A DNA stretch of 64,000 nucleotides. It comes from an uncultured Vicinamibacteraceae bacterium (lineage in GTDB: Bacteria > Acidobacteriota > Vicinamibacteria > Vicinamibacterales > UBA8438). This document shows positions 2 through 50,070 of this stretch, in pieces. The notes beneath the pieces were generated by a model that was given only the letters and a program-made list of their open reading frames with translations, searched no databases and was not told where the DNA came from. The position numbers were made by a program, and so were the translations under genes. How positions within the stretch are numbered: the stretch's first letter is position 1; each line of letters begins with the position of its first letter. The stretch lies in NCBI GenBank assembly GCA_964342695.1, contig CAYFFV010000003.1, positions 53,695 to 117,694 of the forward strand. The letters run 5' to 3'.

Positions 2-844
2 TTCAGAAAGGATGGACGTAATCTGAGTTATATGCTCGCTCATTACGCCTTATCGCCTGATTTCAAAACAGACGTTGGTTTCGTCCGTCGGACGAATCAA
101 CGTTTTAGCTTTACCAGTCTTTCCTATCGCTGGTGGCCTGAGTCGTGGCTCATTAATTGGGGTCCAGAGATTAGATACCACAGAAGCTATAGTTTTAAAG
201 GTCCACTAGATGATGAAAACGCGTCCGTAGGTCTCAGGGCTTCGTTTGCAAACAACATTCGATTGGACGGGGATCTTGGTCGGGAAATGGAGCGATTCGG
301 AGGTATCGATTTCTGGAAAAATCGTTACCAATTTATGGGAGTAGTAAGTTCAAGTCGACTCTTCTCGTATGGGGTGGGGGGAAGTGGTGGAGATCAAATA
401 TTTTTTGATGAACAGAATCCATACTTAGGACAAGAGACAGGGTGGAATGTATTTCTTAATCTTCGATTGTTCTCAAGACTACAGTCACGGATTAACGTGA
501 GGACCAACAAATTTGTTAATACAAACACAGACGGTAATATTGCGTTTGATGTAAACATATTTCGAGCATTGACAACCTATCAATTTAGCAAGCGATTACA
601 GTTTCGCAACATAAGTGAGTACAACAGTCTCCAAAGGTCGCTCGGCCTTAATTTTCTGTTCACATACAGGATCAATGCGGGAACTGTGTTCTATTTTGGG
701 TATGACGATCGATATCGACAAGCCAACAGGATTGACTGGGATCTAAATTCTGATTCGCTAAGCGATCCTTTTTTCCAGTCGAACCATCGTGTGCGCACTA
801 ACAGGGCTATTTTTACGAAATTACAGTACCTGTTTCGTTTCTAG
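2..844 (+). CDS. DUF5916-family putative outer-membrane protein, C-terminal part (5' truncated by window edge)
   Basis: The frame is open from base 2 (FRKDGRNLSYMLAHYALSPDFKTDVGF) and aligns by eye with FQKNGRNLTYAFGWYNLSPDFKTDVGF in the next ORF. It ends in KLQYLFRF, an aromatic C-terminus. Confidence 0.8.
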   Translation, partial: FRKDGRNLSYMLAHYALSPDFKTDVGFVRRTNQRFSFTSLSYRWWPESWLINWGPEIRYHRSYSFKGPLDDENASVGLRASFANNIRLDGDLGREMERFGGIDFWKNRYQFMGVVSSSRLFSYGVGGSGGDQIFFDEQNPYLGQETGWNVFLNLRLFSRLQSRINVRTNKFVNTNTDGNIAFDVNIFRALTTYQFSKRLQFRNISEYNSLQRSLGLNFLFTYRINAGTVFYFGYDDRYRQANRIDWDLNSDSLSDPFFQSNHRVRTNRAIFTKLQYLFRF

Positions 845-917
845 GTTGCGCAAGTATAAGACAGGTTACAATGTTGGTTTGGTGACTTCTTTTTTTTCTA
901 CTTCTTTGAGACAGCAC

Positions 918-3785
918 ATGCTCGGAGTTATTGCCAGTGTATTGCTCTGTACTGGTAGCGCTGTTGCCCAGGGTCAGCAATCGGAAGATGGTGAGCCGAG
1001 AGGGTTCCGATCGAGCACGATTGCGGTCTTACCCTTAGCAAACATCTCTAATAATCCGTCAGACGAGTCTATCGCGCTTGGTATCACAGAAACTATCGTT
1101 TCTGATCTCAAAGGATTTCCAAATTTTTCCGTCATAGATACGGCGGCATTCTTTCGCGAGGAAAATAAGAGTACAGAGTTTTGGCGGCCGTATGAGTTAG
1201 AGGCTTACGATGCCGCAAGAGAGTTCGGTGTTGGCTGGGTCGTGTCTGGAGGGATTCAGCGGCTAGGCGACGAACTGCGTGTGACGTTGCAAATCATCAA
1301 TCTAACAACACAATTGTCTTACCAGGCTGTAAAAATAGATGGTTCGGTTGACTCTTTATTTTCTTTGCAAGATGACATTGTCGAACAGTTGCGAATGCAG
1401 TTAGCAATTCTGGCTGGTTCCCCAGCTATTACTGCTGTTGAAGAGGGAGACGATCGCTCGGAGGCTGAGAACATTCTTCACACTTCCGAAACGACCATGG
1501 AGGAAAAGGCGCCTCTATTTGGAGCGGAAAAGACAGAGTTGTCTGCAACCCATGGCACTCGATCTGCCGATAGTGAGCAGTTGTACAGCCCAGCCAGTAT
1601 AAGGCCTTACCGGACAGAGATTGTTCCAGTCATCGACGGTGTTCTAGATGATAGAACATGGCAAACCGCTGTTAAGGTAACGGACTTTGTTCAGCGTCAG
1701 CCACTCGATGGGGCTCCGGCCACTGAAAAGACTGAGGTTTATCTCGCTTACGATAGCTCAACAATTTACATTGGTATACACGCGCACTATCAAGATCCAG
1801 GAATCATGCGAGCGAATCGGGCTGATCGAGATCGCCCGATTGCTGATGATGCTGTTTTAGTGTATTTCGATCCGTTTCGTGATCAGCAGCGAGCATATGT
1901 TTTTGGCGTTAATGGTTACGGAGTGCAAAGCGATTCGATTTTAAATGCACGCTCTGGGGGTGGACGTGGACCAGGCCGTGGGTTTGGTGGAATGCATAGA
2001 AACGGACCGGGTGGTGCGCCGCGTGGCGATATGTCTTGGGATGCGTTATATCACTCAGCTGGTCAGATTGTCGAAGATGGTTTCACGGCCGAGCTAGCCA
2101 TACCATTTAAAAGCCTTCGATACCCCCAACGTGGGTCTGCCGCGTTACACGAATGGGGCTTCCAAATTGCACGAACTATTCGAGGCAAAGATGAAAGCGT
2201 GGTTTGGGCACCCGTATCTCGTAATGTTGCTGGATTTTTGACCCAAATGGGAATTTTGGAAGGTATGACCGGATTATCGACGAGTCGTAATATTGAGATT
2301 TTACCGACCTTCACAGCGGTGCAGTTTGGTTCGCTCGACGCTGACTCGAAGACCTTTGTGAACAAAGATCCTGAACCGGAGGGTGGGTTCAATCTAAAGT
2401 ACGGGCTAACTTCTAACCTGACCGCTGACTTCACATACAATCCAGATTTTTCGCAGATTGAAACAGATCAACCGCAAATAGAGCTAAACCAACGGTTTGA
2501 ATTATTTTTTCCTGAGCTCCGACCATTTTTTCTTGAAGGAGCTGAAATTTTTCAATTCAGAGGACCAGTGAATCTTGTGCATACGCGGACTATCGTGGAT
2601 CCTGAATACGGCGGAAAATTAACTGGAAAAGTTGGAAATACAACCATTGGTGTGTTGTATGCCAATGACGAGGCTGCTGGAAATCTTGAAGATTCGAGTG
2701 ATGCTACATTTGGTCAAGCGGCACAGACATTTATAGGCCGACTACGTTATGACCTTTATGCCGAATCGTATATCGGTGCTTTAGTCACTGATCGAGAATT
2801 TATGGATGGGTACAATCGAGTTGCAGGAATCGACAGCAATTTTCGCTTAGGGGACACGCATTCATTTGGGGTTCGGGCAGTTGGAAGCAAGGACCGAGAC
2901 CTTCATGGTCTTGAAACGTCTGGCTATTTGCTCAATGCCAGTTTTCAAAAGAATGGACGTAATCTGACTTACGCATTTGGTTGGTACAATCTGTCTCCCG
3001 ACTTCAAGACCGATGTTGGTTTCGTAGAGCGGACCGATCAACGGTGGACGTTAGGTACAGTCTCTTATCGATGGTGGCCAGAAGGCTGGCTTATAAACTG
3101 GGGACCGCATTTCACTTACACACGGGCCAGCAATTTTGACGGTGTGTTGGAAGATGAGAGCACAAGCGGAGGATTTGGATTCCGGTTTGCCAAGAACATC
3201 ACAGTCAACACAAACATTGATCGGGTAATGGAACGATTTGGCGGTTTTAATTTTGACAAAACACGATATAGCACTTTTGCTACAGTCAGCACGAACAGGC
3301 GCATCGCTTTTGGTGGAGGTTTTAATCGTGGCGATCAAATTTTTTTTGATGAGGAAAATCCATATCTTGGGTTTGATATGGGCTGGAATCTTTTCGTCAA
3401 TGCACGTCCTTTTACACGCCTAAACTCAAATATAAATGTGTTTACAAATAGGTTTATTGACAGATTAAATAACGACACACCCGTCTTTGATGTGAAAATT
3501 CTTCGCGCCCTAACTACTTATCAATTTACGAATCGTTTACTTGTAAGAAATATTAGTGAGTACAACAGTTTTGATAAAAAGTTTGGTTTTAATTTTCTGA
3601 TTACTTACAGACTTAATGCGGGAACGGTGTTTTACGCAGGATATGATGATCGATATCAAAGGGGAAATAAAATCGAACGAGATTTAGACGGAAATGGTAT
3701 TAATGATCGGTTGTTTCAATCCAATGATCTCCAGCGAACCAACCGAGCCGTTTTCGTGAAGCTTCAGTATCTATTCCGATATTAG
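918..3785 (+). CDS. Exported protein: TolB-N/CsgG-like domain + CBM9-like sugar-binding domain + DUF5916 barrel region
   Basis: ORF 789..3785; likely start is ATG 918 with a signal peptide (MLGVIASVLLCTGSAVAQ). Motifs: TIAVLPLANIS...GGIQRLGDELRVTLQI (TolB-N-like); IDGVLDD..W, FVQRQP..G.PATEKTEV, ELAIPFKSLRY (CBM9-like); YNPDFSQIETD, FFPELRPFFLEG (DUF5916). Confidence 0.8.
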   Translation: MLGVIASVLLCTGSAVAQGQQSEDGEPRGFRSSTIAVLPLANISNNPSDESIALGITETIVSDLKGFPNFSVIDTAAFFREENKSTEFWRPYELEAYDAAREFGVGWVVSGGIQRLGDELRVTLQIINLTTQLSYQAVKIDGSVDSLFSLQDDIVEQLRMQLAILAGSPAITAVEEGDDRSEAENILHTSETTMEEKAPLFGAEKTELSATHGTRSADSEQLYSPASIRPYRTEIVPVIDGVLDDRTWQTAVKVTDFVQRQPLDGAPATEKTEVYLAYDSSTIYIGIHAHYQDPGIMRANRADRDRPIADDAVLVYFDPFRDQQRAYVFGVNGYGVQSDSILNARSGGGRGPGRGFGGMHRNGPGGAPRGDMSWDALYHSAGQIVEDGFTAELAIPFKSLRYPQRGSAALHEWGFQIARTIRGKDESVVWAPVSRNVAGFLTQMGILEGMTGLSTSRNIEILPTFTAVQFGSLDADSKTFVNKDPEPEGGFNLKYGLTSNLTADFTYNPDFSQIETDQPQIELNQRFELFFPELRPFFLEGAEIFQFRGPVNLVHTRTIVDPEYGGKLTGKVGNTTIGVLYANDEAAGNLEDSSDATFGQAAQTFIGRLRYDLYAESYIGALVTDREFMDGYNRVAGIDSNFRLGDTHSFGVRAVGSKDRDLHGLETSGYLLNASFQKNGRNLTYAFGWYNLSPDFKTDVGFVERTDQRWTLGTVSYRWWPEGWLINWGPHFTYTRASNFDGVLEDESTSGGFGFRFAKNITVNTNIDRVMERFGGFNFDKTRYSTFATVSTNRRIAFGGGFNRGDQIFFDEENPYLGFDMGWNLFVNARPFTRLNSNINVFTNRFIDRLNNDTPVFDVKILRALTTYQFTNRLLVRNISEYNSFDKKFGFNFLITYRLNAGTVFYAGYDDRYQRGNKIERDLDGNGINDRLFQSNDLQRTNRAVFVKLQYLFRY

Positions 3786-39099: not shown

Positions 39100-40137
39100 G
39101 TGATGACAGAATGGAACCGTCAGATTACTTTGGTTGCTCGACCAGAAGGATCTCCTAAAAGCACCGATTTTAAACTCGTTGAGACTCCCGTGCCGACCCT
39201 TGGTTCAGGGGAATTGCTTGCCCGCACAATTTATTTGTCTCTCGATCCCTACATGAGAGGGCGCATGAATGAGACACGAGGTTACGCAGATGGAGTGAGA
39301 CTTGGAGATGTCATGGTGGGAGGAACCGTGTCAGAGGTTGTTGAGTCAAACAATACGGAATATCAAAGCGGAGATCTCGTGCTTGGAATGGGGGGATGGC
39401 AAGAATATTCTGTCTCGAATGGGGTCGGTTTAAAAAAACTTAATCCTGATGATGCACCTATTTCAACTGCGCTTGGTGTGCTTGGGATGCCTGGTCTTTC
39501 CGCGTACGTCGGGCTTCTAGATATTGGGAAACCGATGCGAGGTGAAACCGTAGTGGTATCAGCAGCTTCTGGGGCAGTTGGTGCCGTTGTGGGGCAAATA
39601 GCGAAAATCAAAGGATGCCGAGTGATTGGTGTGGCCGGGGCACCCGAGAAATGTGATTACGTCGAGAGACAACTTGGTTTTGACGTTTGTGTTAGTCGTT
39701 TCGATGACGCATTTCCAGTGGCTCTCAAAGAAGCCTGTCCTGACGGTATCGATATTTACTTTGAGAATACTGGCGGAAAGATTTTTGAAGCAGTTCTGCC
39801 TTTGTTAAATACTTACGCTAGGGTTCCTATCTGCGGACGAATTGCAGGTTACTCCGGCCAAAACACAGATAGACCCAACTTGACTTCATATGTCATGTAT
39901 CTGGCAATTGTGAAACGGTTAACATTTCAAGGTTTTCTAGTTTTCGATCATTACGATCGGGAATCTGATTTTTTGCGTGATGTTCAGTTATGGATCCGTA
40001 AAGGTCAGCTTGTTTACCGGGAGGACATTCTTGATGGACTTGAACATGCGGTCAAAGGTTTTCAGGGTTTGCTGCAGGGTAAGAATTTTGGCAAGTTGCT
40101 TGTACGTGTTTCCGAAGACCCAACGTCTAAACAATGA
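39100..40137 (+). CDS. NADP-dependent oxidoreductase (CurA/prostaglandin reductase-like MDR)
   Basis: LSLDPYMRGRM, LGVLGMPG..AY.GL, VVSAASGAVG..VGQIAK..G, GIDIYFEN.GG, GKNFGK. Confidence 0.92.
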   Translation: MMTEWNRQITLVARPEGSPKSTDFKLVETPVPTLGSGELLARTIYLSLDPYMRGRMNETRGYADGVRLGDVMVGGTVSEVVESNNTEYQSGDLVLGMGGWQEYSVSNGVGLKKLNPDDAPISTALGVLGMPGLSAYVGLLDIGKPMRGETVVVSAASGAVGAVVGQIAKIKGCRVIGVAGAPEKCDYVERQLGFDVCVSRFDDAFPVALKEACPDGIDIYFENTGGKIFEAVLPLLNTYARVPICGRIAGYSGQNTDRPNLTSYVMYLAIVKRLTFQGFLVFDHYDRESDFLRDVQLWIRKGQLVYREDILDGLEHAVKGFQGLLQGKNFGKLLVRVSEDPTSKQ

Positions 40138-41507
40138 CTAAGGTGCGTCCCGTTGATGCCGGGCGTTTTCCCGACTCTCTTGTCCTCTTATTTGTGCTGA
40201 TACTTCTTGCACAGGTGGCAACCTATTTTCTTCCGGCGGGTGAGTTTGAACGCGATGGTTTGCGAGTTGTTAGTGGAAGTTTTCATCCGGTTAATGCGGA
40301 TCCTCTTCCATGGTTCAGCTTTTTGACCTTGATTCCTGTTGGCTTATCTGCAGCACAAGAAATCATTTTTTTTGTTTTTATTGTCGGCGGTGTGATTGCG
40401 GTTGTCCGTGCCACGGGTGCCATTGATGCTTTGATTGGAGCTTGTATCAGAAACTTGGGATCGCGGCCACATTTTCTGGTTGGTGGAATGGTGGCTGTAT
40501 TTGCACTTGGTTCCTCAACAATTGGTATGGCCGAGGAGTATGTAGCGTTCGTGCCAATATTGGTTGCGATGTGTTTGTCCATGAAGATGGATGCGATGGT
40601 GGCCGTTGCCATTATCTATGTAGGTGCCGGCATTGGTTATGCATGTGCAGCGCTTAATCCGTTTACGGTGTTAATCGCCCAGGAGATAGCCGGAGTACAG
40701 CCCACGTCAGGACAAACGGTAAGGTGGATCTTACTCCTACTCTGCGCCGGAATTGGTGTACACCATATTGTGAGTTATGTCCGTAAATTAGAGCGGACCC
40801 CAGAGCCGGATCTAGTTAATGAAACAGTTGCAGCTGGTGATACTAAGGCCTTAGAGCTTCGGTTTTTAGAATTTAAACATATTTTCGTGCTTCTCATCTT
40901 TGTTGCCGGTGTAGGCCTATTTCTTTTTGGAGCGATGTTTTGGGCGTGGTACTTGGCAGAACTAACAGCGATGTTACTTGGGTTAGCATTGGTTATCGCA
41001 GTTGTTAGCAAACTAAATTACAACCTCGTAGCAACAGCTTTTTGTCGAGGTGCGGCAGGATTAACAACGACAGCATTACTTATAGGCTTTGCGCGCACGA
41101 TTCAGGTGATATTGTCTGAAGCTCAAGTTATCGACACCATCATTTATAGTGTTGCGCAGTCTATAAATGGTTTGCCTTCTGGAGTAGCGGTGTTAGGGAT
41201 GTTACTAGTGCAGACAGTGTGCAATTTTTTTGTTCCCTCTGGATCCGGTCAAGCTTTTATCACAATGCCGATCATGGCACCTCTTGCGGACCTCACAGGA
41301 ATTAGTCGACAGACGGCGGTTTTGGCCTATCAGTTTGGCGACGGTTTTACGAACATGGTTGTGCCCACGAATGCTGTGTTAATGGGCATACTTGGATTGG
41401 CGCAAGTTCCCTATCATGCTTGGTTACGATTTATTGTTCCCTTACTCGGTAAACTGTATGTTGTGGCTATTATTGTCTTGCTAATGGCGGTAGAGTTTGG
41501 ATACTAG
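40134..41507 (+). CDS. YfcC-family (DcuC-like) membrane transporter
   Basis: LPAGEFER, G.AEE, NPFTV.IAQ.IA, VPSGSGQA..TMPIMAPLADL.G..RQ.AVLAYQFGDG.TN. Confidence 0.88.
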   Translation: MTKVRPVDAGRFPDSLVLLFVLILLAQVATYFLPAGEFERDGLRVVSGSFHPVNADPLPWFSFLTLIPVGLSAAQEIIFFVFIVGGVIAVVRATGAIDALIGACIRNLGSRPHFLVGGMVAVFALGSSTIGMAEEYVAFVPILVAMCLSMKMDAMVAVAIIYVGAGIGYACAALNPFTVLIAQEIAGVQPTSGQTVRWILLLLCAGIGVHHIVSYVRKLERTPEPDLVNETVAAGDTKALELRFLEFKHIFVLLIFVAGVGLFLFGAMFWAWYLAELTAMLLGLALVIAVVSKLNYNLVATAFCRGAAGLTTTALLIGFARTIQVILSEAQVIDTIIYSVAQSINGLPSGVAVLGMLLVQTVCNFFVPSGSGQAFITMPIMAPLADLTGISRQTAVLAYQFGDGFTNMVVPTNAVLMGILGLAQVPYHAWLRFIVPLLGKLYVVAIIVLLMAVEFGY

Positions 41508-41606
41508 TGATGTTGGAAGTCATTCTATGTATAGTAAATCTCATGGAACCATAGCCTCAATTGGAAAATTATGGGGTGTCCTTAAGGGAAGGCTAATTGC
41601 GAGAAA

Positions 41607-42449
41607 TTGATGCACTTTAATGTTTTTCGGTACCGACTACCTGTTTTTTTTCTGATGGGGCTTCTCTTGGTTGGCTGTGATCAATCGAGCACCTTAGTTG
41701 ATCTTGGTGGAAATGTACCCGATCCTATTTATGAAGTGGAGCCGGGTTCTATGACCATCCAATTGCTCCGTGAACCTGTTGCCATTTCTCCGGTGAGAAT
41801 GACGAGTCTCAATGGGAACACCTTTTCCACAACTGACTGGCTTGGCAAGGTGACCTTGGTGAATTTTTGGGCTACTTGGTGTGGACCATGCAGAGAGGAA
41901 ATCCCTGATCTCATTCAACTACAAGAACGCTATCCAGATCACCTCCGCATCATTGGCATTTCGACTGATGAAGGCACTCCGGAGATGGTTAAGGCGTTTT
42001 CAGAACAGATGGGCATTAATTATCCCGTTGTTATGGCAACTCCAGAATTAAACAGACAGTTTCCTGGTGTATTTGCCTTGCCGACATCATTTATTGTCGA
42101 TCCGAGAGGGCACATTGTGCAGACGCACGTCGGCTTGATCAACCCGGCTGTTTTTGAACAAGAAGCGCGGCACTTAATGTTGTTGCCGACCATGGTAGAT
42201 GTCGAATTAGTGGATAGCAATGATACGACGCGCTTAGTAAATGCGGCGCACGCTACGGAGATTCCTGGGTTGGATCTTTCAGAACTAACTCCGACTCAGA
42301 AAGAACAAGTTCTCCAGCGACTTAACGAAGATGGTTGTCCTTGTGGGTGTTCTTTAACCCTTGCTCAGTGCCGGATCAATGATTCTTCTTGTGGTATTAG
42401 CCCGCCATTGGCACAAAAAGTAGTCGACGAAGTGATTAGCTCGAATTAG
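41607..42449 (+). CDS. TlpA/ResA-family thiol-disulfide oxidoreductase lipoprotein with C-terminal Cys-rich domain
   Basis: Lipobox LLVGC; LVNFWATWCGPCREEIP; ALPTSFIVD..G; C-terminal CPCGCSLTLAQCRINDSSC. Confidence 0.85.
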   Translation: MMHFNVFRYRLPVFFLMGLLLVGCDQSSTLVDLGGNVPDPIYEVEPGSMTIQLLREPVAISPVRMTSLNGNTFSTTDWLGKVTLVNFWATWCGPCREEIPDLIQLQERYPDHLRIIGISTDEGTPEMVKAFSEQMGINYPVVMATPELNRQFPGVFALPTSFIVDPRGHIVQTHVGLINPAVFEQEARHLMLLPTMVDVELVDSNDTTRLVNAAHATEIPGLDLSELTPTQKEQVLQRLNEDGCPCGCSLTLAQCRINDSSCGISPPLAQKVVDEVISSN

Positions 42450-42511: not shown

Positions 42512-45500
42512 CTATGTTGCTGAAGGAGCAGGATCGTTGGTAATAGGTGTGGAGTTTCTGTCGTTGGTGTTATTACTTCGAAAAATTAAATTGAACACTA
42601 AACGAATATCTTCAAGTACAAAGTAAGAGGTTGGTACCAAAATTAATGTAATAAAGGTGGCAAATATTACCCCGAATGCTAGAGAAACTGCCATCGGCAC
42701 AAGGAAAGCGGCATCAAAGCTTTTTTCAAGCATTAAAGGCGCTAGTCCTAAGAATGTAGTTAGGGAGGTTAAGAGGATTGGCCGAAAACGCGAAACCCCC
42801 GCTTCGCGAACAGCGGAAGCGATGTCTTCATGTAAGAGCCGTTTTCGGTTAATAAATGTGACCATCACTAAGCTGTCATTGACAACTACACCAGTTAGAG
42901 CGACTAGCCCGAACATCGACATCATTGTTACATTTAATCCCATAATAATGTGTCCCCAGATCGCGCCAACAAGACCGAATGGAATTGCACTCATGATGAT
43001 AAGAGGTTGGACATACGACTTCAATGGAATGGCAAGCAATGCAAAGATCATAAACAAGGCGATTACGTATCCTGTTTGTAATCCCCCGATTGCATCATCT
43101 TGTTCGGCTTGTACCCCTTCCATCTCGTAGGAAATACCAGAATAACGAGCGAGAATATTTGGAAGAACGTTTTGTCTAAGATCGGCGATCACTTCACCAC
43201 TTGTTGTGAAGTTTTCATCTACGCCGGCAGTAACATTAATTGCTCTCCTCCGGTCCACACGTTTGATTGATGAGAATCCTCGGCCAGGGTCGACAACGGC
43301 AACTTGCCCAAACGGGACTTCACCGCCACTTGGAGTTCGAATGCGCATCTTCTCTAGGTTGCCGAGCGATTTACGTTCATCAGCGGGATACCTCACCATA
43401 ACTCGTATATCATCTCGGCCACGCTGAATCCGCTGTGCTTCTTCTCCATAGAACGCCTGTCGAACTTGTCGGCCAAGATCCTGAAGTGTCACGCCTAATG
43501 TTTCAGCAGTTTGTTTAATGCCGAGTTTCATTTCTCGTTTTCCCGGCAGAAAAGAATCACTTATGCCGAAAACACCAGTATAGTTTTCAAGGTGAAGCTT
43601 GATTTCATCGGCGGCCAGTTGCAGTTGATCTATATCTCGGCCAACAAGCATCACATCAACATCTTCTCCTGGTGACATCACAGAAGAGTTAAATTTCAGA
43701 CCTGTGGCTTCCGGAATGTCTCCAGTGATGGCTCTCCATCGGTTTCCCAAGGCTTCGCTGTTGTAGATTCGATTTTGAGAAGGCGCCAGTTCTAACATGA
43801 CTTCGCCAAGATGAGCCGCTGATCGGTTGCTAACTGGTCCGATTGGCCCTCCGTCCCGAGAAGCGATCGGTTGATCTCCAACGGCGGCAAAGATATGCGG
43901 GATGTAATCCTCACCCGTTTCATCAATCAGATCCTGTCTTAATTGTGCGGCCGCGGTTTCGAGTTTTCGGACGGCTTTAGCTGTTTCAGAGACCGGTGTA
44001 CCTTGAGGCATAGTGATTGACGCCGCCATAAAATCAGCTTCAATGCTGGGGAAGAAATGAAAATTTGTCCATCCACCCAGCACCATGCCGACTGTTAGAA
44101 TAAGCGTTGCTAAGCCTGTAGACAGCGTGAGATATCGCCATTTCAAACAAACTTCTAATGTTGGTTTGTAGACACTGTGAATAAACCGTTGCAGTCCGTT
44201 TGTAATTAGCTTCCGGAAAGATCGTAAGGGCCCTTTTCTAGGTTTCTTTTGAGGAATATAAGAAAGATGGGCCGGTAGGATCTTGAGAGATTCAACTAAT
44301 GAGAAGACAAGACAGGGAATTACAATTAACGGGATAATCCGAAACATTTTGCCCATCATGCCAGGCACAAACATTAAGGGCAGAAAAGCCGCAACAGTAG
44401 TTAAAACTGCAAAAATGACGGGTGTTGCTATTTCCTGTGCACCTTCGATGGAACCTTTAAGTCCTTGGCCGTGACGTTCTTGGTGTGCATAAATGTTTTC
44501 TCCGACGATGATAGCGTCGTCAACAACAATCCCGAGTACAAGAATAAAAGCGAACAAGGATAGAACGTTTATCGTAGCATCGAGTCCAGGCATCAACATG
44601 ATGGCACCAAGAAACGAGATCGGGATACCAAGGCTCACCCAAAACGCGAGTCTAATTTCAAGAAAGATAGCGAGTACTAGAAAAACCAATACGAAACCAG
44701 ATAGGCCAGTGCGCAACATGGTGGCAAGTCTAGTGGTCAGCATTTCGGCTTGATCCATAAGAATGGTAAGTGACACCCCGGCTGGAAGACCTGGCTGGGT
44801 GTCGCCAACATAGTCATAGATTCGATTCGCAATACTCAGTGCACTTTGATCGCCAGTCCGAAACACCGAAACCAAGACGGTGGGTTCGAGATCGAAGCGG
44901 GCGGATTGATCCGTTTCTGCAAAGCCATCTACTACATTCGCGACTTCGCCCAACAGAAGACGAGTACCGTCCGTGCGGGTTAACAACACGATATTTTCGT
45001 ACTCTGAACCACGATAAGCTTGTCCAATAGTCCGAAGGAGAATTTCCCCGCTGTCACTTCTTACTGATCCGCCCGGAAGATCTAGAGATGAACGACGAAC
45101 AGCATTTGCCACCTCGTCAAATGTTAAACCGTGCCGACGAAGTGCTGTTTCTGAAATTTCGATTGAAATTTCGTATGGGCGTGCACTACTAATCTCTACA
45201 AGAGAAATTTCTGGAAATGAAGACAGTTCAAGACGAATGTTATCTGCGATTGTCTTCAGTGTCTCTTCGTCAGTTTGTCCAGAAATTGCAAGATCGATCA
45301 CTGACTCACGACCAACCAATTCACGGATAATTGGTTTTTCAGTTTCCTCTGGAAATGTGTCGATAGTATCGACACGACTTTTTATGTCATCGAGAACGCG
45401 TCGGGCGTCTGCACCGAGCTCAAGTTCTACCATAACAGTTCCAAAACCTTCACCAGCGTTAGACGTTACGTGTTTCATTCCATCGACGCCTTGGATTGCT

Positions 45501-45709
45501 TCTTCAATGCGCACACAGATAGCTTCTTCGACTTCTTCAGGGGCAGCTCCGAGATAGGGCACCTCGATCATGATTCGATCGAGCGTGATCTCTGGAAACA
45601 CTTCTGATCTGACGTTAAATGCCGCGATGAGGCCACTTGCGACAATGAACACCATAAGTAAATTGGCTGCGACGGTGTTTTTTGCGAACCAGGAAATAAT
45701 GCCGTTCAT
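42512..45709 (-). CDS. RND efflux permease (AcrB/HAE-type)
   Basis: 1065 aa; ANLLM, GIVVDDAIIVGENI, GVVVNDSLV, RFRPILLTS, A.SLAFG..FAT..TL.LVP. Confidence 0.95.
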   Translation of the reverse strand: MNGIISWFAKNTVAANLLMVFIVASGLIAAFNVRSEVFPEITLDRIMIEVPYLGAAPEEVEEAICVRIEEAIQGVDGMKHVTSNAGEGFGTVMVELELGADARRVLDDIKSRVDTIDTFPEETEKPIIRELVGRESVIDLAISGQTDEETLKTIADNIRLELSSFPEISLVEISSARPYEISIEISETALRRHGLTFDEVANAVRRSSLDLPGGSVRSDSGEILLRTIGQAYRGSEYENIVLLTRTDGTRLLLGEVANVVDGFAETDQSARFDLEPTVLVSVFRTGDQSALSIANRIYDYVGDTQPGLPAGVSLTILMDQAEMLTTRLATMLRTGLSGFVLVFLVLAIFLEIRLAFWVSLGIPISFLGAIMLMPGLDATINVLSLFAFILVLGIVVDDAIIVGENIYAHQERHGQGLKGSIEGAQEIATPVIFAVLTTVAAFLPLMFVPGMMGKMFRIIPLIVIPCLVFSLVESLKILPAHLSYIPQKKPRKGPLRSFRKLITNGLQRFIHSVYKPTLEVCLKWRYLTLSTGLATLILTVGMVLGGWTNFHFFPSIEADFMAASITMPQGTPVSETAKAVRKLETAAAQLRQDLIDETGEDYIPHIFAAVGDQPIASRDGGPIGPVSNRSAAHLGEVMLELAPSQNRIYNSEALGNRWRAITGDIPEATGLKFNSSVMSPGEDVDVMLVGRDIDQLQLAADEIKLHLENYTGVFGISDSFLPGKREMKLGIKQTAETLGVTLQDLGRQVRQAFYGEEAQRIQRGRDDIRVMVRYPADERKSLGNLEKMRIRTPSGGEVPFGQVAVVDPGRGFSSIKRVDRRRAINVTAGVDENFTTSGEVIADLRQNVLPNILARYSGISYEMEGVQAEQDDAIGGLQTGYVIALFMIFALLAIPLKSYVQPLIIMSAIPFGLVGAIWGHIIMGLNVTMMSMFGLVALTGVVVNDSLVMVTFINRKRLLHEDIASAVREAGVSRFRPILLTSLTTFLGLAPLMLEKSFDAAFLVPMAVSLAFGVIFATFITLILVPTSYFVLEDIRLVFNLIFRSNNTNDRNSTPITNDPAPSAT

Positions 45710-45716
45710 GTTCGAA

Positions 45717-47930
45717 TTACTCTGAGGTGACTTCTGCGATTGCGGCTTCTAGATCACTGTAAATGGTCGACACCATTTGTTCGCGTAGTTGTTTGACATT
45801 ATTTGTCGAACCGTCAATTTTCGCAGAAGAGACAACGACGCCATCTTTTTGTCTGACCACTCTCGCGGTCACACGAACGGTGTCCCCCACGCGTTGGATA
45901 CCACCAGTGACCACGAAAGTCGCACCTGTTGGTTCGTCGACAAAAGTCGATGTTTCGTTAAGAGTAATTTGCGTGAACAGTGCCTCGTTAATGCCTTCAA
46001 CCAGTAATGTATCTTCCGGGTTCTGGGTGAGATTAATGAATGGTTTCATCGAGATGGTAATGCCAGTTGATGTGGGGATACTAGGCGTTTCAACTGGTGA
46101 GAAGGCCGGCGGTCTCATTGCCGGTTCTGCTTTTGGTAATTCATTAACAGTGCGGACTTTAAGAACAGCTTGAAGGCTTTTTCGAACAGTCTCTGCAACT
46201 TCTTCTTGAACATTTGATAAGCGGTCAAGGTGTCCGTCTACCTTAATAACGTCGATCGTTCTACTGTCTTCTGACTGTACGATCCGGGACGTTATTTTTA
46301 GTCTTTCACCTTCTTGCTGAACAGCGCCTCCAACGACCCACTGAGCTGTGGTTGTGTCTGGTACGATTGTTACCGTTTCAAGATTCTCGAACTGCTCCGA
46401 TACAAGTTGAGCAAGCGTTTCACCGAGACGGATCGTTTCAGTTTGCTGACTCAGGTTCGTAAACGGTAAGACCGCGACGGTGGGTTCCCCTTTTGGTTTG
46501 GCTACTGTTTCAAGGTTTTCAGGTGCCGTGTTAGCGTCTTCCTCAGGTAAATTTGAAGTTAAAACGACCGGAGGCACATTTAGATCTTGGGTTGCTTGTT
46601 GTTTGTCTATTGATTTAATTTTTGTTTCAGAAGTTCTCGCCACAACTGCTTGTAGCCAAGCAGGAGATTCTTGTGCAACTCTCTGGTTGGAAAGCGGATC
46701 CAGAATTTCTGTTTCAATTGGTTGTGGTTGCACAGCGTCCTGCAAGTCAATCTGTAAGTCAATAATTTCACTGACCTGCACCTGCATTCCATCAGTCGGG
46801 CTATCAAGTGTTGATATCGTAACTTGGTCGCCGGTTTCGAGCCCTGCTTCGATAAAGAGTGACTCTGTTGTCATTCGAAGAATATCTACGTCACGGAAGC
46901 GGAGTCTGCTTTCCTCATCAACTACCATCACTTGATTGCGGCCACGAAGAGCCGAACGGGGGATCGAAGCAATTTGACTGAAGCGACGTCCTGCGATCTG
47001 TGCGTCAACATACATCCCCACCGCGAGAGGAGGTCTGGTTGGATCCGAGCCTACCCCATAGGGATCTCTGATTTCAGCAATTACATTCACCATTCTGCTA
47101 ACAGGGTCGATCTCGCTTTCTGTTCGTACAATGCTTCCCGCCCATGCGTAAGTTTCACCAGCAAAAGTAGTGCTGACTGTTACTTGAGGTCCTTGAGAAT
47201 TAGTTTGGCCTCGATAAGACAAAGGTAAGTCCAGATAGGCCAAGTCCTCGTCGGGTAGCGGTAATCTTATTTCTGCGACGTCGACGGCGTAGATGGTTGC
47301 TATAGGGTTTCCTACGGTGACAAATTGACCAACATCAACACTCTTACGGCGCACCCGCCCCGCATATGGTGCACGAATTTCTGCGCGCTCAAGATCGCGT
47401 TCTGTTCGAACAAGGTTAGCTTCGGCAGCCGCGACTGCTGCGCGTGCATCTTCAAGTTGTGGTTTTCGAAGTGTTAGTTCACGTGGGTCACCTTGGCCAA
47501 GTTCGTCCCATTCACGTTGCGCAACTTCTGCTTCGGCCTCTTCTTGCGCTAAACGTAATCTTGTTTGTGCCAGTTGTGCCCGCGCACTTATAACGGCCTG
47601 ACGATAATCAAATGGATCAATAGTGACCAGAACGTCGTTAGCTTCAAAAAAACCACCTTCTGCAAAAGAAGGTGCAATGGATGTAATACGACCAGAAATT
47701 TCTGGAACAAGTTGACTTTCTGTGCGAGGCTGGACGGTCCCTTCACTTAAAACAGAAAGCTCAGTATCTTCGAGGCGAACGACATGCACACGCACGCCAG
47801 GTGGAGCAATTCGAGGCGCCTGTGTTTCCACCGGAGGCCGACTATTTATCATGGTCATCGTGGCAAAACCTGCCAGCCCCAAAATACCTAGTGGAAGAAT
47901 CACTTGTAATAAACGGATAGCTATACGCAT
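45717..47930 (-). CDS. RND membrane-fusion (periplasmic adaptor) protein with about 350 aa C-terminal extension bearing two TolB-N/CsgG-like domains
   Basis: MFP motifs LVPEISGRI, F..G.FF, IRAPYAGRV, V.VGQFV, IPRSAL. Then PTVAVLPFTNLS...GAVQQEGERLKIT and MKPFINLT...GGIQRVGDTVRVTARV. Confidence 0.88.
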   Translation of the reverse strand: MRIAIRLLQVILPLGILGLAGFATMTMINSRPPVETQAPRIAPPGVRVHVVRLEDTELSVLSEGTVQPRTESQLVPEISGRITSIAPSFAEGGFFEANDVLVTIDPFDYRQAVISARAQLAQTRLRLAQEEAEAEVAQREWDELGQGDPRELTLRKPQLEDARAAVAAAEANLVRTERDLERAEIRAPYAGRVRRKSVDVGQFVTVGNPIATIYAVDVAEIRLPLPDEDLAYLDLPLSYRGQTNSQGPQVTVSTTFAGETYAWAGSIVRTESEIDPVSRMVNVIAEIRDPYGVGSDPTRPPLAVGMYVDAQIAGRRFSQIASIPRSALRGRNQVMVVDEESRLRFRDVDILRMTTESLFIEAGLETGDQVTISTLDSPTDGMQVQVSEIIDLQIDLQDAVQPQPIETEILDPLSNQRVAQESPAWLQAVVARTSETKIKSIDKQQATQDLNVPPVVLTSNLPEEDANTAPENLETVAKPKGEPTVAVLPFTNLSQQTETIRLGETLAQLVSEQFENLETVTIVPDTTTAQWVVGGAVQQEGERLKITSRIVQSEDSRTIDVIKVDGHLDRLSNVQEEVAETVRKSLQAVLKVRTVNELPKAEPAMRPPAFSPVETPSIPTSTGITISMKPFINLTQNPEDTLLVEGINEALFTQITLNETSTFVDEPTGATFVVTGGIQRVGDTVRVTARVVRQKDGVVVSSAKIDGSTNNVKQLREQMVSTIYSDLEAAIAEVTSE

Positions 47931-47944
47931 TTTAAAAGAAATAA

Positions 47945-49393
47945 TTAATTAAAAAACCCGCCCGAATTTTCCAACATGAAAGGCGATTCGATTTGTTCGA
48001 AACCCCCTCCTAATGCAAGGTAGAGGTCGACACGGTTTTCCAGGCGAAGTCGCTTGGCGGCGATTAATTCTCCTTCAACCTGCACTGCAGATCTCTGTGA
48101 GTCAAGTACAGTAATGTAGCTTTCAAGGCCGGCTCGGTAGCGTTCTTCCGAGAGTGTCTCAGCAGCCCTTGCTTGTTCAGCAGAGATTACGAGATGTTTT
48201 TCCCGGTCTTCCAAGAATTGTTCGGCCGCCAACGCTGTTTCCACTTCTGCGTAAGCGATGAGTGCCGTGTTTGCATACGAGGCTAATGCTGTTGCGCTTT
48301 CCGCTTCCGCGCGACCAATATGTGCCCCAAAGCGACCTTTTCCCTGCCACAAGGGTGCTGTTACATCTGCAAGAAGGCTCCAAACGCTGAAATCTCCGTT
48401 AATGAGAGAACGGAGTGCATCGGTGGCCGTTCCACCACCTGCCGTTAGCCGAATACGCGGTAGTCGTTCCTTCCGCGCAACACCAACTCGAGCTTCGGCG
48501 GCAGCAAGTTGTCGCTCGGCAGCCACAAGATCAGGTCGACGAGCAACAAGATCTGCAGGCAACCCACTTGGTACGTGCGGTGCTACAGTGGGGAGCGAAG
48601 CGGGTGGTTCAATGGTCCCGTCCGCATATTCGCTCAGCAGTACTTTGAGTTGACGTGTGGCGGAATCAAATTGTTGTAATCGTTGTTCCAACAATGCTTC
48701 TGCATTCGACAAATTGAGTAACGCAAGTCTCAGATCAAGTGACGGTCTAATCCCTGCTTCAAACCGCTCTCGGACTCTGTCGGCCGATTCTCTAAAACTA
48801 GTTACAGTCTCGCGGGATAAATCTATTTGTTGTTGCGCTTCGGCGATGGCAAACCAAGTCTTCACGGTCTGTCCAGCAATTGATAATTGGGCGCCTCTAA
48901 AGTCTGCTGCCGAAGCTTGTAAGTTTGCTAGCGCTGCTTGGGTACTCGCCCGTAGCCGTCCCCATAGATCAAGTTCCCATGAAACATCTAGAGAAATACC
49001 GTGATTGGTGGAAACAGTGCTCAAAACCTGGTCTTCTGCTCCAGGAATCGGAAAGCCCACAAAGTTTTGTTTACGTTGATAGCGCGTATACGATGAATTT
49101 ACCGTTGGTTGTAAATCAGCCGATGAGATTGTTGCTTCTGCGGCCGCCATTTCTAAGCGTGCCGCAGCGCCTTGAAGATCGAAATTGCGCTCTAAGGCCA
49201 TCTCTACCGTCTTTACAAGGTCGGCATCGGCAAAGTCCTCCCACCATCGGACTGCAACTTGCCCAGTTTCTGTGGTCTTTGCCGTCCAGGTCTCTGGAAT
49301 ATTGACTCCAATGTCTGGAACTTGTACCGGTGGCGCCGTCGCGCAGCTACAGACAATTACGGAGACAAGGGAGATTATTATTTGCCTACTCAT
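47945..49393 (-). CDS. RND outer-membrane factor lipoprotein (OprM/NodT family)
   Basis: Lipobox VCSC; WWEDF.D..L..., SWELDLWGR, P.GLPADL..RRPDL.AAE, RYRAGL..Y..VLD.QR, V.LY.ALGGG. Confidence 0.93.
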   Translation of the reverse strand: MSRQIIISLVSVIVCSCATAPPVQVPDIGVNIPETWTAKTTETGQVAVRWWEDFADADLVKTVEMALERNFDLQGAAARLEMAAAEATISSADLQPTVNSSYTRYQRKQNFVGFPIPGAEDQVLSTVSTNHGISLDVSWELDLWGRLRASTQAALANLQASAADFRGAQLSIAGQTVKTWFAIAEAQQQIDLSRETVTSFRESADRVRERFEAGIRPSLDLRLALLNLSNAEALLEQRLQQFDSATRQLKVLLSEYADGTIEPPASLPTVAPHVPSGLPADLVARRPDLVAAERQLAAAEARVGVARKERLPRIRLTAGGGTATDALRSLINGDFSVWSLLADVTAPLWQGKGRFGAHIGRAEAESATALASYANTALIAYAEVETALAAEQFLEDREKHLVISAEQARAAETLSEERYRAGLESYITVLDSQRSAVQVEGELIAAKRLRLENRVDLYLALGGGFEQIESPFMLENSGGFFN

Positions 49394-50070
49394 TGTTGTT
49401 TGTCTTTTTTGGAAAGAGTCTTCTTGCTAGTCGTTTGTAGTTTAGATGTTGAAAAGCCAGCCGCTGCGAAACGAATTAGAGATTCAAAAAGCTGCTTAGG
49501 GGTTTCCTGGTCACTTTCGTTTGTTGCCGTCAATTCGAACAAAATCATTGTGTGGGACATGGCCCCAAGGGTAAATTCCATGCGGCGTTTTACTTCATCA
49601 GGTTCAAGGTTGGGTAAAGCTTTCTGCAGGGCTTCTGTATACCGCACTACAACTTGATCGAATTGATTAAAAAGCGAGGCTCTTACCTCTTCGCTGGCAG
49701 AATGGCATTGCCCAAGGAATCTTAAAAATTTGAGACCCTTTTGTTTTTCCTCGGTAGTGTCAAGTGCAGCCCATGCATAAAATGGTGGACCAAGAAAAGC
49801 AGAAAGGATGTCTTCGATGGCAGGACTTGTCCCTTCGTTTTTATTGTGTAGTTTGTCAAGCAGTGCGATGCGCTCATTGTTGATGGGGCGCAAATTTCGT
49901 TCAAGGATGGCCTTCAACAGTTCTTCTTTTGAACCGAAATGATAATTGACCGCCGCAAGATTCACTTCGGCTTCTTTGGTGATATCACGCAAAGACGTCA
50001 CTCCGACGCCTTCATCGGCAAACAATCGCTGTGCTGTGTCAAGAATCCGATCTTTAGTGTTAGGGGTCAT
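49390..50070 (-). CDS. TetR/AcrR-family transcriptional regulator
   Basis: TKDRILDTAQRLFA..G...TSLRDIT..A.VN.AAVNYHFGSKEEL. ATGA overlap with the OMF gene. Confidence 0.93.
   Translation of the reverse strand: MTPNTKDRILDTAQRLFADEGVGVTSLRDITKEAEVNLAAVNYHFGSKEELLKAILERNLRPINNERIALLDKLHNKNEGTSPAIEDILSAFLGPPFYAWAALDTTEEKQKGLKFLRFLGQCHSASEEVRASLFNQFDQVVVRYTEALQKALPNLEPDEVKRRMEFTLGAMSHTMILFELTATNESDQETPKQLFESLIRFAAAGFSTSKLQTTSKKTLSKKDKQQ

Follow-up and report, generated by a model that had tools for sequence, protein, structure and literature searches.

Tripartite efflux pumps of the resistance-nodulation-division (RND) type have been described as three-component machines, and the extra domains known from their adaptors, or membrane fusion proteins (MFPs), are metal chaperones. 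In AcrA/MexA-type pumps six adaptors are present per pump, and the adaptor C-terminus is located at the membrane-proximal (MP) domain near the inner membrane. The extras listed in a 2015 review of adaptors are metal-binding ones only, situated at the N- or the C-terminus (PMC4446572). In silico analysis of a 64,000 nucleotide (nt) stretch of DNA from an uncultured Vicinamibacteraceae bacterium (GCA_964342695.1, contig CAYFFV010000003.1, positions 53,695 to 117,694), hereafter called the window, established that an RND adaptor encoded on it continues beyond its core into a C-terminal arm bearing two additional modules, and that this fusion is real, conserved, restricted to one lineage and made of known parts, while its function is one that we infer. 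An earlier interpretation made from the letters of this DNA alone (the sequence-only reading) had held that no TolB-N-type extension of an MFP has been described, and this agrees both with the review and with full-text literature searches, which returned no description of the fusion, of a function for COG5616 or of DUF5916.

The adaptor is specified by an uninterrupted open reading frame of 737 codons at 45717-47930 on the minus strand of the window (window translation), the product of which comprises, from N- to C-terminus, a transmembrane (TM) anchor, an RND adaptor core, a disordered linker of approximately 93 residues and two homologous modules of approximately 108 residues each, designated D1 and D2 (Table 1). 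The core includes the MP domain, the beta-barrel, the lipoyl domain and the alpha-hairpin, and TIGR01730 (RND_mfp) matched residues 47-386 against positions 2-321 of the 322 in the model (E 1.7e-43; 148.8 bits as compared to a cut-off of 94.9), which places the end of the core at approximately nt 46770, close to the position of 46780 at which the sequence-only reading had a normal MFP stop. This full-length match, the TM helix at residues 2-29 and the presence of outer-membrane factor (OMF) and RND permease genes in the same operon assign the protein to the RND adaptor family; no lipobox cysteine was present in the sequence of its N-terminal anchor region. D1 and D2 are 30% identical (blastp E 5e-18), and the operon, in the order tetR-OMF-adaptor-RND, is intact and tightly spaced, as tetR and the OMF gene overlap by 4 nt and the gaps that follow are of 14 and 7 nt; the two tandem homologous domains and the compact operon were thus both correctly recognized from the letters alone. 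The same gene order is kept in related loci, with the RND permease gene syntenic in the 65 that reach beyond the adaptor gene.

The arm might be a mis-assembly or mis-annotation of two joined genes, or else a neutral or decaying passenger, and we regard this explanation in either form as very improbable. With regard to assembly, the stretch 45600-48000 is covered by Logan contigs of seawater metagenomes from separate studies (2019, 2025), in which neither a frameshift nor a stop was present and which differ from the window by substitutions and by one in-frame 12-nt indel in linker 1 (46739/46744; 46739-46750), environmental populations thus differing by one copy of an IDLQ repeat. In addition, 733-residue versions are encoded in the same operon on three further assemblies, with C-terminal regions that are 79-97% identical. 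An identical frame is therefore open past the MFP core in independent assemblies and sequencing runs, by which an assembly artefact is ruled out. Metatranscriptome contigs were found on tetR, the OMF gene, the adaptor core and the RND gene, and one of them (46427-46621) crosses the boundary between the linker and D1, although such evidence is weak because carry-over of DNA is possible.

The fold of the modules was predicted with AlphaFold2 from 35 aligned sequences of the two-module region (predicted local distance difference test, pLDDT, 90), each module being modelled as beta-alpha-beta-beta-beta with a long helix at its C-terminal end. Foldseek comparison of the model with the PDB returned the PelC dodecamer (E 3.5e-6), the TolB N-domain, FlgT, GNA1162, LpoB, HpaA and XCC0632/DUF330; the matches to the TolB-N/PelC/LpoB/FlgO fold group had a probability of 1.00 and E values of 3.5e-6 to 1e-4, with D1 matching PelC and the TolB N-domain at approximately 4e-6. 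On the predicted models, the modules belong to the TolB-N/PelC/LpoB/FlgO/CsgG fold group. In agreement with this assignment, Pfam FlgO (PF17680) scored above its gathering score (36.3 as compared to 22.6 bits) with the matched stretch in D2, and among the 35 orthologues FlgO was matched in 28, LptE in 13 (weakly), TolB_N in 12 and CsgG in 10, while a profile search of PDB sequences gave a marginal match to Vibrio cholerae FlgO (E 0.014). The invariant residues of D2 are G676, Q679, R680, G682, R686, T688, K704, D706 and G707, and the modules are acidic, with isoelectric points of approximately 4.4 and 5.0.

The full-length AlphaFold2 model resembles beads on a string, in which linkers with pLDDT below 50 alternate with modules at approximately 90. 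Linker 1 is 93 residues long in the window's adaptor, with Q, E, L, A and P abundant, and ranges from 54 to 171 residues (median 101) across the family, the linkers being 41% Ala plus Pro; linker 2 has a family median of 11 residues, and the proteins end 0-7 residues after the last module. Within linker 1 a helix with the motif P-x-W-[LV]-x-x-[VL] recurs in 30 of the 51 members of the family, some of them deeply diverged, and may act in docking as a short linear motif.

At E<=1e-3 the module profile matched 55,381 representative proteins, a number that falls to 10,521 at E<=1e-10; the module also heads DUF5916 proteins, consistent with its having been proposed as a reusable periplasmic unit. 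The canonical unit of this family is approximately 125-135 residues long and includes a beta2-alpha2 segment of approximately 25 residues (VIARxSxFxYKG...LGV), which is absent from the adaptor modules (approximately 108 residues) and present in the DUF5916 copy. Both forms share the motifs LPF-N-S, GG-Q/R-x-G-x-x-R-[IV]-T-A and [KY]-[VD]-[DR], and the adaptor modules are, as judged by sequence comparison, a derived short subtype of the COG5616/TolB_N-like family. The closest relatives outside the adaptors are proteins built of module-plus-TPR units, often repeated; in a sample of 44 such proteins an adenylate/guanylate cyclase domain (Guanylate_cyc) was matched in 17 and BTAD in seven, and a CadC_C1 match was found in one giant relative. 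This company is what speaks for a sensory arm, in which the modules would perceive an envelope cue and gate the assembly or activity of the pump, as in cyclase and BTAD/CadC-type proteins. Such a role seems improbable, as the sole possible output domain would be the adaptor itself, a long disordered linker can hardly transmit conformational changes to the core, and even in those signalling proteins the module is at most a candidate sensor.

When prokaryotic species were scanned with one genome each, 187 relatives were recovered, nearly all from Vicinamibacterales or Vicinamibacteria metagenome-assembled genomes (MAGs), with many closed long-read chromosomes among them, and 80 loci were kept. 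Modules were detected in frame behind the core with a module hidden Markov model in 48 of these 80 species loci (one module in 10, two in 34 and three in four), which establishes a genuine and conserved adaptor-plus-module architecture. In the adaptor-core tree every module-bearing protein lies within one 59-member clade (100/99), and the successive outgroups, drawn from other Vicinamibacteria and from other Acidobacteriota (such as Marinacidobacterales, Bryobacterales and Polarisedimenticola), are without the extension, indicating a single gain of the fusion. Whole-genome searches found short adaptor-type modules solely in the window's own GTDB family. One MAG contig (L063:3-2304, plus strand) has the core and the two modules in different frames, probably owing to a sequencing frameshift or to its being a pseudogene, and the scoring of this locus as 'none' in the core tree is an artefact of that frame break.

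In the module tree the adaptor modules form one clade (99/95), outside of which the DUF5916 and TPR-type modules are placed, and the 'first' modules form a clade of their own (99/91), from which it follows that the D1/D2 duplication is older than the radiation of the family and that orthology across species holds for each position. A single adaptor module, the first of L039 (L039:9891-10259, plus strand), lies outside the 99/95 clade; it has retained the canonical insertion and clusters with DUF5916 modules, either as an ancestral condition or because the module was secondarily replaced. In three-module forms the middle module is a duplicate of the last type, while single-module forms have retained either the first type (L014, L019, L021 and L022) or the last (L052, L056 and L059, with L017 and L035 grouping with last and middle modules), which points to independent losses.

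These data also bear on whether the arm is a passenger. As compared to the 79% relative, the ratio of nonsynonymous to synonymous substitution rates (dN/dS) is 0.054 for the core, 0.26 for linker 1, 0.16 for D1, 0.41 for linker 2 and 0.55 for D2, and sequences across the family share a mean pairwise identity of 77% in the core as compared to 53-54% in the modules. The arm is hence subject to purifying selection, and evolves much faster than the core. The high value for D2, the clean absence of the arm from L033 and L053 and the occurrence of an internal-deletion derivative of one lineage among transposases are what might be expected of a passenger, yet one to three modules are retained in most of the loci, the D1 and D2 lineages have each been kept since before the family radiated, the invariant motif residues are retained, dN/dS is below 1 throughout and a metatranscriptome contig crosses into D1, such that the passenger and artefact explanation is largely refuted. 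The derivatives just mentioned consist of the TM anchor, the last strands of the MP domain, the linker and two modules; proteins of 416-492 residues of this kind (L085:8001-9365, plus strand; P0044-P0068) are kept in several closely related genomes, and the one locus examined, L085, is surrounded by transposase and integrase genes. A stand-alone 'FlgO-only' family of 416-530 residues was considered for such proteins and rejected, as they are adaptor derivatives.

The AMIN domains of AmiC and PilQ bind peptidoglycan. A domain of this type appears to occupy the position of the modules in one part of the family, as the adaptor of L028 (L028:7992-9617, plus strand), 541 residues in length, has a different tail and yet is nested within the clade of module-bearing proteins, in a subclade of 10 (starred) which includes one-, two- and three-module forms. 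Searched alone against Pfam, this tail matched AMIN only (E 0.014). A phmmer database search with the tail recovered four more adaptor clusters, so that the AMIN-tailed orthologues comprise five 90%-identity protein clusters (P0223-P0227), with AMIN proteins, including AMIN-Amidase_3 enzymes, as the next-best matches. In an hhalign comparison of the five adaptors with one amidase, the tail aligned to the second AMIN domain with a probability of 91.7% (E 8e-7; 36% identity). As judged by these profile comparisons, an AMIN-like domain has replaced the TolB-like modules at the same C-terminal position in a nested sub-lineage. An adaptor with an AMIN domain is an architecture of which no description was found in the literature searched. 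It has been predicted that AMIN targets periplasmic proteins to particular areas within the envelope, and its fusion to an OMF has been noted (de Souza et al. 2008, PMC2572700). Of the clues to function obtained here, this in-place replacement by a domain predicted to target the envelope is the strongest.

This clue is difficult to reconcile with the proposal, made in the sequence-only reading, that the modules capture ligands and deliver substrates to the pump. In this scenario the tethered modules would bind the pump substrate, or a lipid or lipopolysaccharide-like molecule, and pass it to the RND permease, comparable to the CusF-like domain of SilB. As a precedent, the adaptor SilB does end in a chaperone domain (PMC4446572), 13 of the 35 orthologues have weak LptE-family Pfam matches, and the PsrA-like repressor of the operon hints at lipophilic effectors. 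Among the invariant columns, however, no cluster of conserved Cys, His or Met was noted, the conserved residues are common to a family of approximately 55,000 proteins regardless of context, the characterised structural relatives other than LptE are docking or ring scaffolds engaged in protein-protein contacts, and replacement by AMIN suggests anchoring and hardly fits a substrate-specific role. Substrate capture is accordingly left unsupported and is considered improbable.

The fold relatives of the modules are better known as structural elements of the envelope, FlgO forming a C58 lipoprotein ring in the Vibrio H-ring (bioRxiv 10.64898/2025.12.02.691832) and PqiC, XCC0632 and PelC forming toroids (PMC10897342). 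Given that such relatives serve as collars, plugs and docking units, and given the AMIN swap, an arm that anchors or positions the pump at the level of the peptidoglycan or outer membrane, by means of docking or oligomerising modules, is the reading that we favour, tentatively and with slightly less than even confidence. An ordinary TetR-controlled tripartite RND pump would, in one Vicinamibacterales (Acidobacteriota) family, have gained on its adaptor a C-terminal arm, namely an Ala/Pro-rich disordered tether of 54-171 residues ending in one to three modules of the TolB-N/PelC/FlgO fold. Were the adaptor C-terminus to lie near the inner membrane and the adaptors to form hexamers, 6-18 tethered modules would be present per pump, and an Ala/Pro-rich tether of approximately 100 residues would be long enough for them to arrive at the peptidoglycan and the outer membrane. 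There the modules would dock the pump at the cell wall, round the OMF channel or on an outer-membrane-proximal partner, in a manner analogous to PelC on PelB, PqiC on PqiB and the AMIN domains of PilQ and AmiC, and would not constitute substrate-binding sites. We infer the periplasmic reach and the anchoring role, as well as the hexamer stoichiometry, the latter from AcrA/MexA-type pumps.

Several observations weigh against an anchoring arm. The module copy number varies from 0 to 3 across orthologues and the whole arm was cleanly lost twice, in L033 and in the paralogue L053, both being secondary losses, from which it follows that the arm is dispensable for basic pump function and that a fixed closed-ring stoichiometry is unlikely. 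D2 is fast-evolving in the window's lineage, with long branches in addition to its dN/dS of 0.55. The AMIN assignment is based on profile comparison and lies below the Pfam gathering score, and the published account of AMIN goes as far as predicted envelope targeting (PMC2572700). The nearest relatives of the module occur in TPR-containing proteins that also have cyclase or BTAD/CadC-type regulator domains, in which it may perhaps be a sensor domain, and the binding partner proposed for the arm is a candidate drawn from analogy.

A module of the same family is carried by a CBM9/DUF5916 protein elsewhere in the window, encoded by the open reading frame at 789-3785 on the plus strand with a probable start at Met44 (nt 918), in which DUF5916 (1.5e-14), CBM9_1 (6.7e-5) and, weakly, TolB_N (0.0017) were matched. 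In blastp comparisons D1 and D2 aligned with residues 73-215 of this protein at E values of 8e-12 and 6e-15. The statement that the same module is fused to both proteins thus stands as far as the domain family is concerned; the DUF5916 copy is of the longer, canonical subtype and groups in the module tree with TPR-type modules, apart from the adaptor modules, and the separate clades and the missing segment rule out that the adaptor modules are a recent copy of it. Within the window's 2.07-Mb genome the module is limited to the adaptor and four DUF5916 proteins, and genomes of the window's GTDB family contain 6-40 modules, mainly in tandem frames of approximately 1000 residues, which are of the DUF5916 type. 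In one locus, L010, a DUF5916 gene lies directly behind the RND gene, and this being the only case among the 80 loci, a conserved linkage of pump and DUF5916 genes was rejected.

A further possibility is that the modules of six adaptors associate into a ring of the PelC/PqiC kind around the OMF tube, or join with the modules at the N-termini of DUF5916 proteins and thereby couple pump and barrels. The ring-forming habit of the fold relatives, the confinement of the module to these two kinds of protein in the window's genome, its 6-40 copies per genome within the same family and the gene order at L010 are compatible with such an arrangement. It is nevertheless unlikely in our estimation, as the adaptor and DUF5916 modules belong to separate clades, of which the adaptor type is without the segment of approximately 25 residues, and the genes are adjacent in 1 of 80 loci. 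One to three copies would give 6, 12 or 18 modules per hexamer, a poor fit to one closed ring, and anchoring to the wall is a better match for the AMIN swap; moreover, the fusion was gained once in one GTDB family, so that co-occurrence of adaptor and DUF5916 modules has no statistical power. The lineage-specific interaction network that the sequence-only reading drew from the DUF5916 copy is accordingly a weak hypothesis. The more specific version, in which 6-18 modules build a PelC/PqiC-like collar round the OMF, maybe together with DUF5916 modules, while the sister lineage anchors its pump by AMIN, we rate as less likely again. To our knowledge, a built-in outer-membrane-proximal clamp is known for no efflux pump.

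The DUF5916 proteins merit separate description. Three tandem CBM9/DUF5916 paralogues of approximately 1000 residues (window 2-844 and 789-3785, both plus strand; genome C3:48503-57476) each have an N-terminal canonical TolB-N-like module, and their last residue is aromatic (LQYLFRF, LQYLFRY), in the manner of an outer-membrane beta-signal; the array extends into the beginning of the window. Contig C25 carries a fourth copy, and many such tandem genes occur in related genomes, while a search for solved structural relatives of the DUF5916 body found none.

As regards the remainder of the pump locus, TetR_N and TetR_C_30 were matched in the repressor of a close relative (L087). PsrA is a fatty-acid-responsive repressor, and the PsrA-likeness of the operon's TetR, which is below the equivalog cut-off, hints at lipophilic inducers. 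Convergent to the pump operon, at 40134-42449 on the plus strand, are genes for a putative antiporter resembling YfcC and for a TlpA/ResA-like thiol-disulfide oxidoreductase, the latter with a Cys-rich C-terminal tail, and this opposite-strand gene pair is kept near the pump operon in most related loci. The coordinates of all features are collected in Table 1.

Table 1. Features of the pump operon, the adaptor and the module-bearing DUF5916 protein, in window coordinates
Feature	Position	Strand	Basis
TetR-family repressor, PsrA-like, first gene of operon	49390-50070	-	NF053516 8.8e-38, below cut-off
Outer-membrane factor (OMF), NodT-type, 482 residues	47945-49393	-	TIGR01845 6.9e-89; synteny
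N-terminal TM anchor, residues 2-29	47844..47927	-	AlphaFold2 full-length model helix 2-29; sequence
Complete RND adaptor (MFP) core, residues 45-389	46764..47798	-	TIGR01730, HlyD_3, HlyD_D23; pLDDT mostly 85-95
Disordered linker 1, residues 390-483	46482..46763	-	pLDDT <50 over 391-423 and 431-480
Short predicted helix in linker 1, residues 423-432 (PAWLQAVVA)	46635..46664	-	Model helix 424-432
Module D1, residues 484-590, predicted short-type TolB-N/PelC/FlgO fold	46161..46481	-	Model pLDDT ~90; Foldseek; tree
Disordered linker 2, residues 591-623	46062..46160	-	pLDDT <50 over 596-621
Module D2, residues 624-737, same predicted fold, C-terminal end of protein	45720..46061	-	Pfam FlgO 5.8e-9; D1 likeness
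RND permease, 1065 residues, generic multidrug-like	42512-45709	-	NF033617 RND_permease_2 2.6e-136, below equivalog cut-offs; synteny
Canonical long-type TolB-N-like module, N-terminus of CBM9/DUF5916 protein	1005..1433	+	blastp vs D1, D2; TolB_N 0.0017

The hosts of the fusion are uncultured marine and soil Acidobacteriota, that of the window being marine, and a whole family among them keeps what appears to be an envelope-scaffold arm on its adaptor. Should this arm serve to anchor or clamp the pump, it would be relevant to the way in which pumps are held in place and kept stable relative to the cell wall and outer membrane, and would provide a first functional handle on an uncharacterised periplasmic domain family of approximately 55,000 representative proteins. 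Among known systems, AcrA/MexA-type adaptors are like the window's adaptor in their four-domain core, N-terminal membrane anchor, OMF/RND setting and TetR control, and differ from it in that the latter has a C-terminal arm of approximately 350 residues, outside the architectures of PMC4446572. An additional folded domain at the C-terminus has been described for one class of RND adaptor only, that of SilB of Cupriavidus metallidurans, which has this trait in common with the window's adaptor (PMC4446572). In SilB this domain is a CusF-like metal-binding beta-barrel on a heavy-metal pump, whereas the window's adaptor has alpha/beta modules in one to three copies on a multidrug-like pump; a SilB/CusF-type metallochaperone extension does not apply here, given the alpha/beta fold, a best NCBIfam model for the permease that is of the multidrug type, and a metal-ligand cluster not having been noted. 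The AMIN fusions of AmiC, PilQ and an OMF find their counterpart in the nested sister group, the AMIN-like domain of which is at the same C-terminal position as the modules, has a different fold and is absent from the window's protein. The canonical module of TPR, cyclase, BTAD/CadC and DUF5916 proteins belongs to the same sequence family as the adaptor modules, which nonetheless are not of the canonical COG5616/TolB_N-like kind, being approximately 108 residues long, lacking the beta2-alpha2 segment and forming a separate clade (99/95).

In TolB the N-terminal domain precedes a six-bladed beta-propeller, which is C-terminal and binds Pal, and TolB proper is ruled out, as the adaptor family ends 0-7 residues past the last module and no propeller was matched. 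Flagellar FlgO is a lipoprotein of the outer membrane in its own right, lipidated at an N-terminal Cys, which acts with FlgP and FlgT; the adaptor modules are internal, preceded by a linker and not by a lipobox, and encoded in an efflux operon, so that H-ring FlgO proper is likewise ruled out and the modules are FlgO-like in fold only. PelC is a lipoprotein that forms a closed 12-mer under its partner porin, and the adaptor modules have neither a lipobox nor a pel context, while a copy number of one to three speaks against one fixed ring of the dodecameric type. What PelC, PqiC/XCC0632, FlgO/FlgP, LpoB, CsgG and LptE do have in common with the adaptor modules is the predicted alpha/beta fold (Foldseek 3.5e-6 to 1e-4), and these proteins are outer-membrane-proximal collars, plugs and docking units on trans-envelope machines. 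They are, however, separate lipid-anchored proteins, whereas the adaptor modules are without a lipobox and are tethered to an adaptor anchored in the inner membrane, with a polarity opposite to that of LpoB.

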